Below, in pieces: positions 18,068 to 59,084 of a stretch of DNA of 64,000 nt; the stretch's first letter is position 1; the number at the start of each line of letters is the position of its first letter. Both the position numbers and the translations under genes were made by a program. The stretch is from Naegleria gruberi (Eukaryota). The notes beneath the pieces are model-generated. The model made no database searches and was not told the origin of the DNA. It worked only from the letters and a program-made list of their open reading frames with translations. The stretch is taken from the NCBI GenBank assembly GCA_000004985.1, contig GG738872.1; one strand, 5' to 3'.

Positions 18068-18127
18068 TAAAAGGAATCAAATTACGGATATGGATTATCA
18101 GAACATTATTTTCATAATGAATGTGCT

Positions 18128-18198
18128 CGTCTCGTGGTGTAATGGTAGCATAGTGGACTTTGAATCCATTGACGGAGGTTCGATTCCTCCCGAGACGG
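18128..18198 (+). tRNA. tRNA-Gln (anticodon TTG)
   Basis: Cloverleaf readable by eye: acceptor CGTCTCG/CGAGACG, anticodon stem GTGGA/TCCAT with loop CTTTGAA (anticodon TTG), T-arm GGAGG-TTCGATT-CCTCC. 71 nt. Confidence 0.8.
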
Positions 18199-18261
18199 TA
18201 ACGTGGCGAGCCATAAGTTTTACATCTTAGGTATTTACGTTTATCTCCTCAAAAATTCCAA

Positions 18262-19015: not shown

Positions 19016-19065
19016 NNNNNNNNNNNNNNNNNNNNNNNNNNNNNNNNNNNNNNNNNNNNNNNNNN
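19016..19065. other. assembly gap (50 N)
   Basis: Run of N. Preceded by a 5S-like repeat fragment, consistent with a repeat-induced gap. Confidence 0.95.
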
Positions 19066-33620: not shown

Positions 33621-33681
33621 GCCGACATAGCTCAGTTGGGAGAGCGTAAGACTGAAGATCTTAAGGTCCCTGGTGTCGGCA
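33621..33681 (+). pseudogene. tRNA-Phe(GAA)-like sequence lacking the T-arm (probable tRNA pseudogene or assembly deletion)
   Basis: GCCGACATAGCTCAGTTGGGAGAGCGTAAGACTGAAGATCTTAAGGTC-CCTGG-TGTCGGCA. Acceptor, D-arm, anticodon arm (GAA) and variable loop are intact, and the 3' acceptor strand TGTCGGC pairs with the 5' end. The expected ~12 nt (TTCGATxCCAGG) of T-loop and 3' T-stem are absent. Confidence 0.5.
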
Positions 33682-35493: not shown

Positions 35494-38400
35494 ATGTCTA
35501 ATTTAAAGGATAGAATAGCAGCCTTTGAAAATAGGAATAATACAGGTAGTGGTGGTGCTAGTACAACAAACAATGCTCCTACCTCAAGTAAACCAACAAG
35601 GATTAACGGATCAGAATTAACATCAACTAGTGGTGGTGGCAGTGGTAGTGGCAATGGTCACCCAAGTGGTCGTCCTCTTCCTCCAACTAAAACTACTTCA
35701 AGCAATCCTGTATCAACAACAACAACAACAAACAATGGTAACAATACCACAACTCCAAGAACTCTGCCACCAACACCAACCGATAGAACCTCACTCAATG
35801 TTGGACTGAATAGAACAAATACCACTACCAATAATAATAACACTACTCCTCCAACTGTTAGTCCAAGAATAATAACAACCACACCTACCAATACTACCAA
35901 TACTACACAAGTTGCTGCAGGTAATTCTCAGAATCATCAGCACCACCACCCAACAACAAGCCAGCATCAACCTTCTCCAACCATAAATACCACCCCAACA
36001 ACGCAACAAGAAAATAGCGCAACATTAACTCCAGTATCACCATCTTCATCTCCAACGCAAACACTCACAAGAGTTAATTCTGCTGGACAACAGGACAATC
36101 TTTATGATATGACAAATAATGAGGACGGAAATATGGAGGACGATCCAAGAAGACCGAATGATGTAAATGCTATTCATCAATTGCCAAAAAACAAACCTGC
36201 TGTACCTAAAAAGTTTAGAAATACTCCAGGTACTACAACTACAAATTCAACTTTGGGTAGACCAACACCAAAAGTTCCACCTTCAATTCCACAAGCCAGA
36301 AGAGCTGTTACTTCTTCAGTCACACAAGTCGATCTACCAACTTCAGAAAATGGTTCTGAACCAAACACAACCACAACAAATGTTGATCCAGGTTCTACAA
36401 TCACCTATTCCGATTCATTCAATTCATCAAGAATATCTATTCGTCCATCAGCCAATGGAATGCCTTATGCTTCAGGAATTGTTGGATTAGGCGATAAGCT
36501 CCCACAAGGAAAATTCATTCCTTATGTTCCACCTGAAGTTGAGGATACTGTTGTTAGTAGCTCTCTCACAAAACAAGTTAAACTTTCTATTACATCTGAA
36601 TCAGATGCTGAAACATTGGAATTCCAGGAAATTTACAAACATCCAACTAAAAAACAACAAGATGCTGCTGTTATTCTTCAAAAGTATATCAGAAGATGGG
36701 ATGCTAAAAAGGCCTACAAAAAGATGCAAAAAGCCAGACTTAACAGAGAAAATTGTGCCAAGGAAATTTTGTCAACAGAAAAGTACTATGTTGAATCACT
36801 TAACATTCTTCAAGAAGTTTATCTTAAACCATTCAAAGCTATGGCTGCAAAGGATAAACCATTGATCACCAAGGAAGAAGTCTCTGCTATTTTCTCGGAT
36901 ATTGATGTTATTTTGAACTTTAACAATACATTTTTGAAAGATTTAGAAGAGAGGCTCCAAAACTATGTATACACTGTTACGATCAGTGATATTTTCCTCC
37001 AAATTGCACCTTTCTTTAAAACTTATTCACGATACTGTAACAATTTTGATAAGGCAAATGAAGTCCTCAGGGAATGCAAAAAGAGGGAAGAATTCAAGGA
37101 ACAAGTTTCCAAGATGGATAAGGATAGTAGAACCTCCAAGTTAGGTCTGCAAAGTTATCTTATTCTCCCAATCCAACGTATTCCAAGATATAGATTGCTT
37201 CTCCAAGATTTGATCAAACATTCAGGACCTTCCCATCCCGATTACAAAGGATTGAAATTGGCTCTCGAAAAGATTTGTGAAGTTGCCGATCACTTGAACA
37301 ATACAATGAAGAGTATTGAAGCAACCAATGAAATTATCAAGATTCAATCCCAATTCTATGGTGAATTGAATTTGGTTGAACCTCATAGAAAATTCTTGAA
37401 AGATGGTGCATTGCAAGAAATTGTTTCCGCTGACTTTACCAAAACAAGAGATATCTATGTTCATCTTTTCAATGATATTATTCTCCTTTCACAAAAATCA
37501 GGGAAAACTTTCACCCTCAAACTTCAACTTCCTCTCAATGATTTGATTATTTTCAGCTACCTAAACCAAGAAGATCAAATTGATGACACAATCTTTAAAT
37601 TACAATCACCAAGTAAGGCAATCATCATCAAGACAGCTACACCAGCCGAAAAAAATAGTTGGACCATCACTTTGCACAATTTGATTAATGAATCTAAAAT
37701 TTCCAAGAAGAATAAGACACTCAATGTGGATGTACATACAATTGCTGACGATTCTTCAACTACATTTGCTTTGGCTATGAGTGACAATGATGGTATTGTC
37801 ATTCCACCTGAAGAGTGTATCAGAAGAATGAAGGCTGGTTCTACTATGCTCAAATATTGTCGTACTGGTAAGCCTCACTTTAGAAGATTTGTATTGAGTT
37901 CTGATGAAACTGAACTTATGTGGGGATCCCCTAATAAGCAATCTAACGAATCTATTGTGTCTCTTACTGATGTCAAGAAGATTTGTTACGGCCAAAACAC
38001 AGCAATTTTCCAAAAGTATAAGAATCCTGATCTTGAAGGTCTTTCATTCTCATTATTGTACAGAGATAGAACTTTGGATATTGTATGTAAGGATAAGCAA
38101 GAGTATCACACATGGGTACAAGGTATCACATACTTGTTGTCACACTTGGATTCCATTTTAAAGAAGAAGACTGTTGTCCCAGTTGTTGGAAACGAACCAA
38201 AATTCGCACCAATCACCATCGTCCACGATATGGAAAATGAGAAACAAAAATTCAAGGAACAATTTGAAAGAATTGGTGATGCTTATACATGGGGTCAAGG
38301 TGCTAGTGGTTCACTTGGACACGGAAATCAAGAAGATAAGAAGGAGCCTCTGGTTATGAAGGACTTTTTATATTTGGATGTTTCTATGGTTGCTTGTGAA

Positions 38401-39270
38401 AATTCTGCTGGTGCTGCTGTCATGTTTACAGGAGAATTGTTTACATGGGGCAAAGGAGAAAAAGGTAGATTGGGTCATGGTGATTCTAACGATAGANNNN
38501 NNNNNNNNNNNNNNNNNNNNNNNNNNNNNNNNNNNNNNNNNNNNNNNNNNNNNNNNNNNNNNNNNNNNNNNNNNNNNNNNNNNNNNNNNNNNNNNNNNNN
38601 NNNNNNNNNNNNNNNNNNNNNNNNTCACAATAATACTGAAGAGTATCTTTTACCAACATTTGTAGAAACATTTAGAAATATGCCAGTTAAACAAATTGCT
38701 GCTGGTAGTGCACACAGTGGTTGTATCACAGAAGGAGATGGAGCTGTTTACATGTGGGGAAGTGGTATTTATGGCCAAATTGGTAACAATACTAATACTC
38801 ACGCTTTAACACCAATGAGAGTCAAGTTTGGTAAACTGAAAGCCAAACAACTTGTATGTGGTGTTAATCACGTACTTGTTCTTATGGAAGATGGATCTGT
38901 TTACGGTTGGGGAGCTGGTACTTATGGTAGACTTGGTAATGGTAATGAATCAGATCAACGTGTTCCTGTAAGAATTAATTTCTTTGACGATAAGAATGTT
39001 CGTGGATTGGGAGCTGGTGGCAGTAGTAGTGCTGCTGTTTGTGCTCACCAATGGGTTCCTGATAAGGATGCTGATGATTGTATGAGTTGCAAGTCAAAGT
39101 TTACATTCCTCAGAAGAAGACACCATTGCAGATATTGTGGTGGTATTTTCTGTGGAAGTTGTACTGGTAAAAGAATTACTCTTCTTCGTTTTGGTTTTGA
39201 TGAACCAGTTAGAGTTTGTGACAATTGTTATCAAATTCTTACAAACGCTGCTCAAACCTACAAGAGGTAA
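35494..39270 (+). CDS. multidomain RhoGEF: Ser/Thr/Asn-rich N-terminus, IQ motif, DH domain, two PH domains, RCC1 repeats, C-terminal FYVE zinc finger (about 1258 aa; interrupted by an N gap)
   Basis: IQ: AAVILQKYIRRWDAKKAYKKMQKARL. DH: LQSYLILPIQRIPRYRLLLQDLIKHS. PH: MLKYCRTGKPHFRRFVLSSDETELMWGSP…EYHTWVQGITYLL. RCC1: YTWGQGASGSLGHG, FTWGKGEKGRLGHGDSNDR, VYMWGSGIYGQIGN, VYGWGAGTYGRLGNG. FYVE: WVPDKDADDCMSCKSKFTFLRRRHHCRYCGGIFCGSC…RVCDNCY. Confidence 0.8.
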   Translation: MSNLKDRIAAFENRNNTGSGGASTTNNAPTSSKPTRINGSELTSTSGGGSGSGNGHPSGRPLPPTKTTSSNPVSTTTTTNNGNNTTTPRTLPPTPTDRTSLNVGLNRTNTTTNNNNTTPPTVSPRIITTTPTNTTNTTQVAAGNSQNHQHHHPTTSQHQPSPTINTTPTTQQENSATLTPVSPSSSPTQTLTRVNSAGQQDNLYDMTNNEDGNMEDDPRRPNDVNAIHQLPKNKPAVPKKFRNTPGTTTTNSTLGRPTPKVPPSIPQARRAVTSSVTQVDLPTSENGSEPNTTTTNVDPGSTITYSDSFNSSRISIRPSANGMPYASGIVGLGDKLPQGKFIPYVPPEVEDTVVSSSLTKQVKLSITSESDAETLEFQEIYKHPTKKQQDAAVILQKYIRRWDAKKAYKKMQKARLNRENCAKEILSTEKYYVESLNILQEVYLKPFKAMAAKDKPLITKEEVSAIFSDIDVILNFNNTFLKDLEERLQNYVYTVTISDIFLQIAPFFKTYSRYCNNFDKANEVLRECKKREEFKEQVSKMDKDSRTSKLGLQSYLILPIQRIPRYRLLLQDLIKHSGPSHPDYKGLKLALEKICEVADHLNNTMKSIEATNEIIKIQSQFYGELNLVEPHRKFLKDGALQEIVSADFTKTRDIYVHLFNDIILLSQKSGKTFTLKLQLPLNDLIIFSYLNQEDQIDDTIFKLQSPSKAIIIKTATPAEKNSWTITLHNLINESKISKKNKTLNVDVHTIADDSSTTFALAMSDNDGIVIPPEECIRRMKAGSTMLKYCRTGKPHFRRFVLSSDETELMWGSPNKQSNESIVSLTDVKKICYGQNTAIFQKYKNPDLEGLSFSLLYRDRTLDIVCKDKQEYHTWVQGITYLLSHLDSILKKKTVVPVVGNEPKFAPITIVHDMENEKQKFKEQFERIGDAYTWGQGASGSLGHGNQEDKKEPLVMKDFLYLDVSMVACENSAGAAVMFTGELFTWGKGEKGRLGHGDSNDRXXXXXXXXXXXXXXXXXXXXXXXXXXXXXXXXXXXXXXXXXXXHNNTEEYLLPTFVETFRNMPVKQIAAGSAHSGCITEGDGAVYMWGSGIYGQIGNNTNTHALTPMRVKFGKLKAKQLVCGVNHVLVLMEDGSVYGWGAGTYGRLGNGNESDQRVPVRINFFDDKNVRGLGAGGSSSAAVCAHQWVPDKDADDCMSCKSKFTFLRRRHHCRYCGGIFCGSCTGKRITLLRFGFDEPVRVCDNCYQILTNAAQTYKR
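38497..38624. other. assembly gap (128 N) inside the RCC1 region of the RhoGEF gene
   Basis: Run of N. Frame continuity across it cannot be assessed. Confidence 0.95.
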
Positions 39271-41017: not shown

Positions 41018-41135
41018 GGCTACGGCCATATCACGATGCATGCACCTCATCCCGTCCGATTTGAGAAGTTAAGCATCGTCGAGCCACATCAGTACTGAGG
41101 TTGGAGACAACTTGGGAACCTGTGGTGCTGTAGTC
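41018..41135 (+). rRNA. 5S ribosomal RNA gene (copy 1), followed by a T5 Pol III terminator at 41136-41140
   Basis: GGCTACGGCCATATCACGATGCATGCACCTCATCCCGTCCGATTTGAGAAGTTAAGCATCGTCGAGCCACATCAGTACTGAGGTTGGAGACAACTTGGGAACCTGTGGTGCTGTAGTC matches the universal 5S helices/boxes (…ACGGCCATA…CCCGTCCGATxTG.GAAGTTAAGC…AGTACT…GGGAGAC…GGGAA…GGTGCTGTAG). 118 nt. Confidence 0.85.
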
Positions 41136-41292
41136 TTTTTAATCTTAGATAAATCAACAGGATTACGACTGTGCGTATTGAGCTTGAGAGGTTATAAATA
41201 ACATTATGAACTATTGAAAATAATGTGTGAATGATTTAGGTTTTATTTACAATGATTTGCCTTGGTTTACAAAATTTTGAGTTAAATGGAGA

Positions 41293-42832: not shown

Positions 42833-43291
42833 ATGCAATTATTTGTCAAGACACTCACTGGAAGAACTATCACTTTGGAGGTTGAATCTAATGATTCAAT
42901 TGAAAATGTGAAAAGAAAAGTACAAGATAAGGAAGGAATTTCACCAGATCAACAAAGACTCATCTTTGCTGGAAAACAATTGGAAGATGGCAGAACTATT
43001 AATGATTACAACATTCAAAAAGATTCAACTCTTCATTTGGTGTTGAGATTAAGAGGAGGAATGCAACTTTTTGTAAAAACTTTAACTGGAAAGACAATCA
43101 CTATTGAAATGGAATCGAATGATACTGTTGAGAATATGAAACAAAAGATATTTGATAAGGAAGGTATTCCTTCAGATCAACAACGATTGATTTATGCCGG
43201 TAAGCAATTGGAAGATGGAAGAACTATTGGTGATTACAATCTTCAAAAGGATTCAACTGTGCATTTAGTATTGAGATTGAGAGGTGGTTAA
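42833..43291 (+). CDS. di-ubiquitin-like gene: two diverged ubiquitin repeats ending in GG-stop
   Basis: Repeat 1 differs from canonical ubiquitin at about 11 of 76 positions and repeat 2 at about 16 of 76. Lys6/27/29/33/48/63 and the C-terminal LRLRGG are retained; Lys11 is Arg in repeat 1. Confidence 0.8.
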
Positions 43292-43472: not shown

Positions 43473-43590
43473 GGCTACGGCCATATCATGATGAATGCAC
43501 CTCATCCCGTCCGATTTGAGAAGTTAAGCATCGTCGAGCCACATCAGTACTGAGGTTGGAGACAACTTGGGAACCTGTGGTGCTGTAGTC
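43473..43590 (+). rRNA. 5S ribosomal RNA gene (copy 2), followed by a T5 terminator
   Basis: Same length (118 nt) as copy 1. It differs at a few positions (TCATGATGAATGCACC vs TCACGATGCATGCACC). The upstream 40 bp shares the element tgattcacAATTTaAGaTAATGAATGGCTACGG with copy 1. Confidence 0.85.
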
Positions 43591-44022
43591 TTTTTATTTT
43601 TAAAAATTTGTAATATCAAAAAACATTGAGGATTGCCTTTCAACTGTTTAGCTTCATAGGCAGTCTTCATTTCAGATAGAACATATTGAAAGTTCAATAT
43701 TGCTTCAATCTTTTTTAAAAATTTTAACCACAATTATAATAATAGAATTTAAATAAATTGAATACATAGAGATCAGCATTACATGACTCCATAGCAATCA
43801 TACCAATAATCAAAGGACAAAAGGCAACTTATGGGTTTGCGTACTCGATTGCTGTGAAGTGGGTACACAAGCTCAGTTGTCTTTTTTTCCATTCTCTAAT
43901 TTCAATTTCTTTTGCTCCTCCATTCTCATCCCAAATGATGGTAAACTACTACTCGAAAGTGAATAAAAAATTGTAACTTACAAAGATTCCATTCGTTTCC
44001 AAAATGTACAAAACCAAAAAAA

Positions 44023-45379
44023 ATGCTCGAAAAGCCAACCCACACCATTTCACTGATCGGGCAAAAAGGCAGTGGTAAATCAACACTTTTAGGTCAACTA
44101 TTGTATAGGATGGGATATGTTTTCGATGAACAATTAGAAGAAATTTCAAAAACTGCTGATCAATTAGGAAAACCAAATTGTAAATATTCCTTCCTGGTCA
44201 ACACAACCAGAAAGGAGAGGGAATGTGCATCAAGTAGTCAATTATCGTTTAGACAAGTGGAAACTAAAAATTATTTCTGTAATTTAATTGACACACCAGG
44301 TAGGAATTCTTATTTGAATTTATTGAAACATTTTTGGAATATTGAAAGGAATGGCAGTTTATATGAAGAAAACAATTCGTGCATTGGCAATTTCGAATAC
44401 AGTTATTGCAGTAATTGATCCGAGAGAAGTCGAATTCGAAAGGAGCATCAATCGATTTGATGGAATATTGAGACAGTACATGTTTTCTTCCAGAGTTTCC
44501 AATTCACAAATTATTTGTTGTGTCAATTTAATGGATCATCCAGAAGTTAATTATTCAGAGCAAGTCTTTGTGAAAACAGTTAGTGAACTTTCAAACATCT
44601 TGAAAAGAATAGGATGTAGGTCTCCAGTAGATATCATTCCAATTTCTGGTTATTGTGGAGATAATATTGTGGAAATATCTGATAAAACACCATGGTATGA
44701 GGGTAAATGTCTATTGGATGCTTTGAATTCATTGAAACCAACTGCAAATAATCTGGAACAAAGTTTAAGAATTCCAATTTTGGATGTTAAAAAAATAAGT
44801 GGAGTTGGAACAGTTGTTTATGGAAAAGTTGTAGCAGGAATACTAAAAATGGGGTCAAAAATAGTATTGGCTAATTCTAATATTGAAAATGCAAGAATTG
44901 AAGCTATTGAATCATTTGGAAAGCGATTGGAAGAAGCAAAATCTGGTCAACTGGTGGCTATCAACTTGCGTAATGTCTTCCACAGCTCAATCAAATCAGG
45001 AGATGTAATATTAGAGGGGGGGAAATCTACTGGTATTGTAACTCGCTTCTTTGAAGCCTGTATTTTAAATATTGGCCATCCAAACAACATTCATCCAAAT
45101 TACAAGCCTACAATTCAAGTACAGGCTACTCAAGCTACTTGTAAATTGGTTACTATTAAGAAAACCACAACTCCACAAGGGGTTTTGATTGAAAATTCAC
45201 CACGCTTTATTAAGAGAAATGAATTTGGAGTGGTTGAGTGTGAATTAGACAAAGCTTGTTATTTGGATAAGGATGTGTTTTGTAGATTTTATTTCAGAGA
45301 TTTGAGGAAGGTAATAGGATTTGGCTTGATTACTCGTGTTGGAGTTGAACAGCCCGTGGAAAGTGAAAGTAATAAATAA
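44023..45379 (+). CDS. EF-1alpha-family GTPase paralogue with altered GTPase motifs; 2 exons (44023-44299, 44349-45379; about 435 aa)
   Basis: N-terminus KPTHTISLIGQKGSGKSTLLGQLLY aligns with the EF1A G1 region (KTHINIVVIGHVDSGKST). G3 is DTPG|M instead of DAPGH, with Met replacing the catalytic His across the splice junction. Then YMKKTIRALAISNTVIAVID (EF1A: FIKNMITGTSQADCAVLIV), G4 NLMD, and a domain II/III-like region (ILDVKKISGVGTVVYGKVVAGILKMGSKIV). Intron GTAGGA at 44300 to AG at 44347-44348, frame preserved. Confidence 0.7.
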
Positions 45380-45706: not shown

Positions 45707-46880
45707 TCATTCATAAACGTAAATGAAAGTATCATGAGCAACAAACAATCTTCCAGTAAATCTATCAAGACAAAGACCTGACGAGCCATGGGGTAATTTC
45801 TTTTTCAAAATTAACTTTCCATCTCTATCAATAACAAATGCCTTGAATTTACCAAATGCAGGATTAATAATGAAATATATCAATCCAGATAGTCTATCCA
45901 TATCAATGAAATCCACTAATGATCCAGGTTGTTCAAAAATTATTTCTTGTTTCCATTCTCCATTCACATATTCGAATCGTTCAATATTCCTGTCAATCAT
46001 TACGAAAAATGAATTCTCAGCCAAACGATCCACACATATAGAACCACTCAACCATTGAGGACTCATATCATATTTGGTAAGAGAGCTTCCAGTTGTTGCA
46101 TCATAAAACCTTACGGAATTAGAATCCACTGAAACTACTCTCTTTCCTTCAAGCATTAAAACATTAATTCCCTTATCTGAATGATAACCCTCAACTTTCC
46201 ATAATGGATTGCACTTCCCCTTCGTTTCAATAAATTCCCTTAAATCGTATTTTACAATGTGTTGTGAATGATTGTTTATCAGTGCATCAAATCCTCGTCC
46301 ATTATAATTTTCCTCAATTGTAAAACAAGAAACCTTCTTTCCATGTGAAATGATGTAACTTTTGTAATTTGTTACTTGGTCAATTATCATAAAACTATAT
46401 CTCGTCAATGCTATTAAACAAGAGCATTGCTTTGATAGTTTAACATCATAGAGAGGCTCAAAAGTTTCCTCAAAATATTGCCTACAATCAATTGTAGAAA
46501 TTAAATTAAAATTATTGGAGAATGGTGCTAAATGTTTTTCCCTGAATTTTTGTTGCAGCTTTGGTAAAAAGTTGCTCCGAACCATCATCAACAACAAGAT
46601 TATTCTTTTTGGAACTGTGTGGAACAAAATCAATCAGCTGAATGTGTTGCGGCATTTTTTTAACCAACTTTCCAGTAAGATTGGTTTTTACAATATTGGT
46701 CAACTGAAGATTCTTAGAATCATAAAGATTAATTTGAATATTGAGCTCAGGTTTGATTTCAACAATTCTTGGCGTTTCAAATAAAACACTATCTCTTTTG
46801 TAAACACAAGGAAAATGTTCGAGTTTTACTCGGAGAGAATGGGAACGAATCAAACTCCTAAAACCCTTTTGAACATGCAA
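45707..46880 (-). CDS. hypothetical protein, beta-propeller-like. Two overlapping ORF segments (46880-46512 and 46633-45707) imply a short intron or frameshift near 46560-46600.
   Basis: Long open frames in two phases on the minus strand. A candidate 37-nt GT-AG intron would join them in frame, but this is not secure. No family recognised. Confidence 0.4.
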
Positions 46881-59011: not shown

Positions 59012-59084
59012 GCCCGTCTAGCTCAGTCGGTAGAGCGCAAGGCTCTTAACCTTGTGGTCGTGGGTTCGACCCCCACGGTGGGCG
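59012..59084 (+). tRNA. tRNA-Lys (anticodon CTT)
   Basis: GCCCGTC-TA-GCTC-AGTCGGTA-GAGC-G-CAAGG-CTCTTAA-CCTTG-TGGTC-GTGGG-TTCGACC-CCCAC-GGTGGGC-G folds as a canonical cloverleaf. 73 nt. Confidence 0.85.

Follow-up and report, generated by a model that had tools for sequence, protein, structure and literature searches.

Can a protein that is collinear with elongation factor 1α (EF-1α), but has lost the histidine on which the translational GTPases (trGTPases) rely for catalysis, still be an elongation factor, and if not, what kind of protein is it? The question is raised by a gene at positions 44023-45379 (+) of a 64,000-nucleotide stretch of Naegleria DNA (contig GG738872.1 of assembly GCA_000004985.1; the whole of this stretch is referred to as the window). 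The gene runs from an ATG at 44023 to a TAA at 45377-45379 and encodes 435 amino acids once a single short intron is excised. From the evidence set out below, the product is probably a Naegleria-lineage-specific, EF-1α-derived protein that is maintained by selection as a non-catalytic binder, i.e., as a pseudo-GTPase.

The nearest named protein is a "predicted protein" of N. gruberi that is 82% identical (XP_002671682 / EFC38938 / NAEGRDRAFT_73219 / D2VW20; P0002 in our set). This degree of identity and a GC content of 33.7% indicate that the window stems from a Naegleria near N. gruberi NEG-M but distinct from it. Two further orthologues, L001 (87% identical) and L002 (94% identical; contig k127_286698, coding sequence 440-716 plus 769-1796), are located on metagenomic contigs from ENA ERZ929261. 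Together with the window gene they constitute the four orthologues that are compared throughout. At the locus itself two frames are present, one that starts with ATG 44023 and would reach a stop at 44418 if unspliced, and a downstream frame of 345 codons; excision of 44300-44348 fuses both into the 435-residue product. Exon 1 (44023..44299, +) specifies residues 1-92 and the first base of the Gly93 codon and comprises the start codon, the G1 motif or P-loop, switch I and D90-T-P of the G3 motif. It was delimited on the basis of the open reading frame (ORF) and its translation as well as by conservation of the start codon and the sequence in L001, L002 and N. gruberi P0002. The spliceosomal intron (44300..44348, +) is 49 nt long, reads GTAGGA...AAAG, conforms to the GT..AG rule and sits in phase 1 within the Gly93 codon, with G before and GA after it. 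Exon 2 (44349..45379, +), for which P0001 and P0003 are orthologous ORFs, completes the Gly93 codon with its remaining two bases, encodes Met94 to Lys435, ends with the TAA and covers the rest of the G domain as well as domains II and III.

Comparison with the orthologues supports this splice junction as real. In both L001 and L002 an intron is found at the identical site, 52 nt in length, with the donor GTAGGAA and the acceptor AAAG followed by GA; relative to the window, indels are confined to the intron and the flanking exons remain in frame. A preliminary description of the locus had reported that G3 reads DTPG-M, with Met for the catalytic His created across a GT-AG junction, and conservation of intron site and acceptor in L001 and L002 bears this out. 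The same description had named a different splice that restores DxPGH as one way in which it could be wrong. An exhaustive listing of the in-frame GT-AG pairs that stay open through 45379 yielded 52 combinations, none of which gives DxPGH, and among which only 44300-44348 preserves collinearity with EF-1α. Just one further in-frame acceptor exists nearby in the window, 9 nt downstream (AG 44356-44357, product DTPVYMKK); it was rejected because the corresponding site is AA in L001 and L002. Each of the other 50 pairs removes conserved EF1A segments.

As judged from its sequence, the gene product is an EF-1α-family protein with three domains. Pfam recognizes GTP_EFTU (80 bits), GTP_EFTU_D2 (43 bits) and GTP_EFTU_D3/GTP-eEF1A_C (41 bits), all over the respective cut-offs and with the full length covered. 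Both hallmarks of the EF-Tu/EF1A superfamily, a G domain joined to the β-barrel domains II and III and similarity along the full length, are thus found. Residues 1-423 align end to end with solved a/eEF1A structures, in complete agreement with the collinearity through domains II and III that had been proposed for the protein before. Among solved structures, the matches are Aeropyrum pernix aEF1A (E=6e-75, 256 bits), mammalian and yeast eEF1A (E about 1e-58 to 1e-55, about 193-203 bits), eRF3 (E about 1e-38) and Hbs1 (E 1e-37 to 1e-22). The protein has the three-domain architecture and the length of eEF1A/aEF1A, is about 29-33% identical to these factors and shares with them GxxxxGKST, DxxG, N..D, G5 and many structural Gly, Pro and Trp residues. 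On the other hand, it does not have the basic C-terminal tail of eukaryotic eEF1A and it evolves much faster than eEF1A/aEF1A (ratio of nonsynonymous to synonymous substitution rates, dN/dS or ω, about 0.3).

An EF1A-like protein outside elongation could also be a Naegleria Hbs1, eRF3, Ski7-like adaptor or EFL minus the N-terminal extension. In favor of such an identity, the active site is degenerate in a way reminiscent of Ski7, and in the G-K-V..G segment of domain II the protein has Lys as do eRF3-like and Hbs1-like sequences, where eEF1A has Arg. Similarity points elsewhere, however, as HMMER scores against solved structures amount to 83-134 bits for eRF3 and Hbs1 vs. 174-256 bits for a/eEF1A, and a neighbor-joining (NJ) tree does not group the protein with the eRF3/Hbs1-like sequences that carry GHVDAGKST. 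N. gruberi already has one separate Hbs1 and one eRF3, and the gene is therefore the orthologue of neither. Closer similarity to Hbs1/eRF3, the GHVDAGKST motif and an N-terminal extension are all absent, and the same is true for the traits of Ski7, i.e., an Hbs1-derived module combined with an N-terminal region that binds exosome and Ski complex, since there is no N-terminal region in which exosome- or Ski-binding motifs could reside. Overall, we consider this identity very unlikely. That an Hbs1/eRF3-type extension is missing had been noted earlier and follows from three observations: every orthologue has the start codon, ATG 44004 further upstream lies in another frame and is not conserved, and a gene for 5S ribosomal RNA (rRNA) ends 430 nt upstream. 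ATG 44004 opens an upstream ORF of 24 codons (44004-44078, +) that starts 19 nt before the main ATG and overlaps the main frame; it is probably not functional because its ATG is absent in L001.

With regard to the active site, the protein departs widely from its family. Conservation was assessed against 19 reference sequences, 12 of the canonical eEF1A type and 7 archaeal EF1A, in which 83 positions are at least 90% conserved. The Naegleria protein retains 47/83 of these positions, namely 27/53 in the G domain, 9/12 in domain II and 11/18 in domain III, and the losses cluster in P-loop, switch I, switch II, the QTREH motif and G4. The G1 motif (44059..44085, +) reads G13-Q-K-G-S-G-K-S-T21 vs. 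canonical GHVD(S/H)GKST; the alignment to a/eEF1A references confirms the altered G1 noticed in the preliminary description. GxxxxGK[ST] is kept, while H-V-D is replaced by Q-K-G, such that the P-loop Asp, which belongs to the monovalent-cation site of trGTPases (its role is treated in PMC4509514), has become Gly. The motif reads GQTGSGKST in L001 and in the N. gruberi orthologue. Switch I (G2) is degenerate (44218..44241, +; R66-E-C-A-S-S-S-Q73 vs. ERGITID), RGITID having changed to CAS(S/T)SQ, with the position of the Mg-binding Thr occupied by Ser71 in the window protein and by Thr in the other three orthologues.

G3 and the start of switch II (44290..44353, +) span the intron and comprise D90-T-P-G93 followed by M94, the codon of which is located at 44351-44353. 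The position of the catalytic His is occupied by His in all reference a/eEF1A, eRF3-like and Hbs1-like sequences, by Met in the window protein and in L001, and by Ser in L002. Retention of the His to Met change among orthologues therefore applies to L001 and not to L002, and none of them has His; the surrounding DTPG and YMKK are invariant among the orthologues. In the switch II helix, canonical RDFIKNMITGTSQAD is replaced by AVYMKKTIRALAISN in the window protein. The QTREH motif, universally conserved in EF-Tu/EF1A/eRF3/Hbs1, gives way to G131-I-L-R-Q135 (44461..44475, +; GILRQY) with positions 131, 134 and 135 changed. In G4 (44525..44536, +; N152-L-M-D155 vs. NKMD/NKxD) Lys is replaced by Leu, and Asn as well as the guanine-specifying Asp are kept, identically in L001 and L002. 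G5 (44645..44653, +) is retained as S192-G-Y and reads S-A-Y in orthologues. The list of retained elements thus comprises GxxxxGKST, D90xxG93, N152 and D155 of G4 and S192 of G5.

Changes are also apparent where the aminoacyl end of a charged tRNA would be accommodated. The aminoacyl pocket of EF-Tu is formed by His67, Glu226, Asp227, Phe229, Thr239 and Asn285 (PMC4329189). At the aromatic position of this pocket (44789..44791, +), which is Tyr in a/eEF1A (QDVYKI) and Phe229 in Thermus EF-Tu, Lys240 (LDVKKI) is common to all four orthologues. At the GDN site of domain II (44948..44953, +), Gln293-Leu294 (SGQLVAI) replaces G-D-N, the Asn of which is equivalent to Asn285 of the EF-Tu pocket; the change from Asn to Leu294 is kept in all four orthologues and is also present in the N. 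gruberi paralogue P0233 (AGQLVTI). According to a mapping by alignment, not by structure, the equivalents of EF-Tu Glu226, Asp227, Phe229 and Asn285 are Leu237, Asp238, Lys240 and Leu294, i.e., only the Asp is kept.

Taken together, the features by which a functional eEF1A/aEF1A is recognized, i.e., the catalytic His, a P-loop GHVDxGKST with its Asp, switch I RGITID along with QTREH and NKxD, and the aminoacyl pocket, are not found in the Naegleria protein. The pattern would be that of a protein in which the fold and the nucleotide-binding framework (GxxxxGKST, DxxG, N..D, G5) are kept and the trGTPase machinery is lost. Since the protein still has the P-loop Lys/Ser, DxxG, the specificity Asp and G5, guanine nucleotide binding is probably retained. 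Ribosome-activated GTP hydrolysis, on the other hand, is probably impossible because the His and the cation-site Asp are missing and the switches are remodeled, and it appears unlikely that the protein holds the aminoacyl end of a tRNA. Most likely, it would be neither an aminoacyl-tRNA carrier nor a ribosome-activated GTPase, but a pseudo-GTPase whose effect depends on a bound partner and not on a hydrolysis cycle, with nucleotide held stably or possibly not bound at all. Candidate roles would be surveillance at the ribosome and, on an equal footing, a cytoskeletal "moonlighting" function like that of eEF1A. The losses of the P-loop Asp, the switches, QTREH, the G4 Lys and the pocket residues strengthen the proposal, originally derived from G1 and G3, of a hydrolysis-impaired EF1A-like protein instead of a bona fide elongation factor, as far as this can be read from sequence. 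In operational terms, a pseudo-GTPase has lost catalytic residues, retains the fold and is encoded by a gene under selection, and the Naegleria protein would qualify as such.

Loss of the canonical His need not abolish catalysis in every GTPase. HAS-GTPases have a hydrophobic residue at the catalytic position and are activated in an alternative way, e.g., by a K+ site formed from P-loop and switch I residues. The Naegleria protein could likewise be an active GTPase with non-canonical catalysis that is supplied elsewhere or in trans. Met at the catalytic position in the window protein and in L001 would be compatible with this, as would the P-loop Lys/Ser, DxxG and the switch I Ser/Thr that are kept, and even for Ski7, Kowalinski et al. 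leave open that its non-canonical residue allows hydrolysis on the ribosome (PMC4509514). However, Ser in L002 means that a hydrophobic side chain is not conserved, the cation-coordinating P-loop position is Gly, and switch I, switch II and QTREH are remodeled, with the switch II region representing the fastest-evolving part between close orthologues. The two traits by which a HAS-GTPase is recognized, a conserved hydrophobic residue and an alternative activating element, are therefore not seen (Met/Met/Ser at the catalytic position, Gly at the cation site), and we regard an active enzyme of this kind as unlikely.

For a non-catalytic binder of this fold, Ski7 offers a parallel. In its G-like domain, Ser replaces the catalytic His, switch I likewise has Ser (for Thr), and the P-loop Val/Asp pair has become Thr/Asn; the domain binds GTP stably, and a role as a pseudo-trGTPase that binds without acting as an enzyme has been proposed for it (PMC4509514). 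Ski7 and the Naegleria protein both contain an EF1A-superfamily three-domain module with a residue other than His at the catalytic position. The Ser at this position of Ski7 recurs as Ser94 in L002, its switch I Ser as Ser71 of the window protein and its Thr at the P-loop Val position as Thr15 in the GQTG of N. gruberi and L001; neither Ski7 nor the Naegleria protein has kept the P-loop Asp. At this site, Ski7 has an Asn by which the monovalent ion is still coordinated, whereas the Naegleria protein has Gly. The ancestry is different too, as Ski7 arose in yeasts by a recent duplication of Hbs1 and the Naegleria protein groups with a/eEF1A, not with Hbs1/eRF3, and the long N-terminal region by which Ski7 bridges exosome and Ski complex has no counterpart in Naegleria. 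Considered as an analogy, the likeness is one of active-site chemistry, not of ancestry or membership.

Is a gene with so many losses still maintained? Pairwise dN/dS values were derived by the Nei-Gojobori method and amount to 0.26 for window vs. L001 (p(ω<1)=2.6e-11), 0.32 for L001 vs. L002 (p(ω<1)=5e-9) and 0.55 for the very close pair window vs. L002 (p(ω<1)=0.051). The window, L001 and L002 have undisrupted ORFs, the one in N. gruberi is intact in part, domain II is 90-97% identical among the orthologues, and long invariant blocks are present. The EF-1α-like gene is under purifying selection that is much weaker than usual for EF-1α, and on account of this selection (dN/dS 0.26-0.32) it is not a pseudogene. 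A decaying duplicate or young pseudogene without a function of its own would agree with the large lineage-specific expansion of EF-1α in this organism, with dN/dS well above the expectation for EF-1α including an ω of about 0.75 at residues 93-146 on one branch, with the lack of an orthologue beyond the N. gruberi group and with an N. gruberi gene model that skips residues 93-162. It is distinctly improbable all the same, given that three independent genomes carry the ORF intact over its full length, with start, splice sites and stop conserved, and that dN/dS is significantly below 1 in the two more distant comparisons.

Several observations nevertheless weigh against a selected, nucleotide-binding pseudo-GTPase. 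A dN/dS of about 0.3 is high for a member of the EF-1α family. On the L002 branch, residues 93-146, corresponding to the former switch II and its helix, show an ω of 0.73-0.79, which is near neutral; the pattern fits a loss of catalytic constraint in this region, and part of the protein may be decaying. Loss of the G4 Lys together with Gly for the P-loop Asp makes nucleotide binding uncertain. Orthologues beyond the N. gruberi group were detected neither in homology searches nor by HMMER nor in a scan of JGI metagenomes, so that the function, if there is any, would be young or dispensable. Finally, no mention of the accession numbers or locus tags of the gene was found in the literature. As to the depth of the searches, an exhaustive HMMER comparison of the exon-2 product with 1.84 billion representatives found no sequence with an identity between that of the Naegleria cluster (86%) and 35%, and the scan of JGI metagenome contigs revealed no further orthologues. 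Word-indexed searches, performed with the single protein and with a six-sequence profile, were swamped by bacterial CysN/CysC, probably via the GSGKST word. The relatives that they returned were only the three close Naegleria matches, P0233 and P0175 being unlisted though present in the query alignment.

In the public N. gruberi model XP_002671682, DTP (residue 92) is directly followed by EQVF (residue 163), such that residues 93-162, i.e., switch II through G4, are missing; in addition, the C-terminal residues and the stop are replaced by about 90 unrelated residues. This model is mis-spliced and reads through the stop, and the reference should be corrected. The product of L002 looks like a mosaic, as it is identical to N. 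gruberi over the comparable residues about 163-262, while its domain III is essentially identical to that of the window protein. This could reflect real recombination or a metagenome contig that was assembled as a chimera of two closely related strains. If the N. gruberi-like part of L002 extends upstream, N. gruberi itself probably has Ser at the His position (DTPGSEIYMKK).

A wealth of trGTPases has been recorded for N. gruberi, comprising one "aEF1A", 12 eEF1A, 9 eEF2, one eRF3, one Hbs1 and one eGTPBP, among others, and such protist copies were described as "often highly divergent" (Atkinson, 2015; PMC4342817). The EF-1α orthogroup was flagged again as expanded in this organism in a 2026 preprint (bioRxiv 10.64898/2026.02.23.705090). 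The gene studied here belongs to this catalogued, uncharacterized EF-1α expansion, of which the orthologue XP_002671682 and the sister protein XP_002670889 are members. The papers found on the expansion count the copies and call them "highly divergent" but do not describe catalytic loss, gene structure or selection regime. A literature search that combined "pseudoGTPase" with eEF1A found nothing. Divergent copies have thus already been recorded; what is apparently new is that the catalytic His and other motifs are lost, together with the correct gene structure and the selection regime.

The sister protein P0233 (N. gruberi XP_002670889, NAEGRDRAFT_60950) is likewise devoid of the catalytic His, with GQANSGKTT as G1, DAPANP as G3 and NKME as G4. 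It is placed next to the window clade in 91.5% of 200 NJ bootstraps, and both have in common the derived states Gln14, Arg103, Asn109, Cys213, GQLV at 292-295, Phe403 and an MLEKPT N-terminus. Contig L003 contains an ORF at 70-1080 (P0097) whose product is 47% identical to P0233. The ORF starts just after an AG that follows AT-rich sequence, i.e., at the equivalent of the intron acceptor in the window, and reads V-G-S-F-M-K-S; exon 1 is not on this contig. Its sequence suggests that L003 represents a third His-less lineage, possibly with a shared intron position.

Could the gene instead be archaeal in origin, an aEF1A acquired by horizontal transfer or kept as a relic? The best match among solved structures is the aEF1A of A. 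pernix (256 bits vs. about 200 bits for eukaryotic eEF1A), the best full-length match in our library is aEF1A from a metagenome-assembled genome of Hodarchaeota (223 bits), and one N. gruberi protein was listed as "aEF1A" in the classification by hidden Markov models of Atkinson (PMC4342817). However, other archaeal EF1As score 164-197 bits vs. 200-211 bits for eukaryotic eEF1A, and at 27 positions that discriminate between the two groups the protein shows the eukaryotic state at 6 and the archaeal state at 7. The gene has a spliceosomal intron and a host-like GC content of 33% (33.7% for the window), its nearest relative is another N. gruberi paralogue, and a long-branch sequence is expected to resemble slow, consensus-like sequences most. 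Eukaryote-specific indels of eEF1A were also sought as markers, but plant-type eEF1A references show almost none relative to aEF1A. In view of the mixed scores, the 6 vs. 7 positions, the intron, the host-like composition and the Naegleria sister, the archaeal resemblance is explained as a long-branch or consensus effect, which leaves very little probability for an archaeal origin. Archaeal-like scores of this kind may also account for the "aEF1A" label given to one N. gruberi protein.

His-less EF1A-like proteins without extension occur elsewhere as well. They comprise about 430-450 residues, their G1 is degenerate, and after D[TV]PG they have a residue other than His, as exemplified by Stentor coeruleus OMJ68244 (DTPGNK), Tetrahymena thermophila XP_001019879 (DTPGDT), a transcript from Physarum polycephalum (DTPGRS) and Anaeramoeba flamelloides KAJ6252312 (DTPGRR). 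In our library the group is represented by P0134, P0159, P0138, P0146, P0121, P0143, P0144, P0132 and P0149, and further by Tetrahymena relatives and metagenome contigs. Many of these protist proteins read DTPG instead of DAPG. A far-reaching reading would unite the Naegleria proteins (this gene, NAEGRDRAFT_60950 and L003) with those from ciliates, Physarum and Anaeramoeba in one ancient, unnamed EF1A-derived pseudo-GTPase subfamily with a conserved non-elongation role that was lost from animals, fungi and plants. The recurrent DTPG, i.e., Thr for Ala, is compatible with a single subfamily. Yet, the proteins from other protists show no specific affinity to the Naegleria protein (162-188 bits, below canonical eEF1A), and most of them, unlike the Naegleria protein, keep NKxD and the aromatic pocket residue. 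The NJ tree is star-like and compatible with a single subfamily as well as with independent origins. We consider a common subfamily improbable; independent, lineage-specific degenerations may account for the pattern.

The concept of an EF-1α copy that is freed from core translation and kept for an auxiliary function also applies to the divergent EF-1α genes that co-occur with EFL in several protist lineages (Kamikawa et al., 2013; PMC3699394). The Naegleria case differs from it in that the trGTPases recorded for N. gruberi (PMC4342817) include canonical eEF1A copies and no EFL.

If the interpretation as a non-catalytic, EF-1α-derived binder is correct, Naegleria would have at least two or three EF-1α-derived proteins without GTP hydrolysis and probably without aminoacyl-tRNA binding, natural "dead-enzyme" versions of a protein that ranks among the most conserved in biology. 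They would provide a compact system, free of extra domains, for roles of the EF-1α scaffold beyond elongation such as ribosome surveillance, cytoskeleton binding or regulation. The large copy numbers of eEF1A and eEF2 in N. gruberi would then not reflect simple dosage duplicates, and the His-less copies in ciliates, slime molds and Anaeramoeba suggest that the phenomenon is under-appreciated. No established concept is changed, and the existence of the paralogues had been catalogued before.

The EF1A-like gene lies just downstream of two 5S rRNA genes (41018-41136 and 43473-43591, both +) that are identical at 117/119 bases, and that with short flanks form segments of about 153 bp with 94% identity. 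They flank a di-ubiquitin gene and are dispersed among coding genes without forming a tandem array. The di-ubiquitin ORF (42833-43291, +) is intronless and encodes two head-to-tail units that end exactly in RLRGG. The units are identical to each other at 61/76 positions and start with MQLFVK instead of MQIFVK. Compared with canonical ubiquitin, they are unusually divergent (65/76 and 60/76 identical positions), and the ORF may represent a ubiquitin-like paralogue. Proteins with ubiquitin-like domains are reported to be expanded in N. gruberi (bioRxiv 10.64898/2026.02.23.705090). Downstream, a convergent ORF (45707-46633, -) encodes 308 amino acids and has a counterpart of 315 amino acids on the L002 contig (2090-3037, -) without a precomputed Pfam match; judged by position and orientation, the local gene order looks conserved between the window and the L002 genome.

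Assembly gaps are present at 19016-19065 (50 bases) and 38497-38624 (128 bases) as runs of N. The latter interrupts a 1258-codon ORF (35494-39270, +), the product of which, by eye, resembles a DH-PH RhoGEF with RCC1-like repeats behind it and a zinc finger of the FYVE type at the C-terminus. Genes for tRNA Gln-TTG (18127-18199) and tRNA Lys-CTT (59012-59084) are recognized by both Rfam and ARAGORN. A further match of 61 nt (33621-33681, +; Rfam, 48 bits), which is not called by ARAGORN, may represent a truncated or atypical tRNA.

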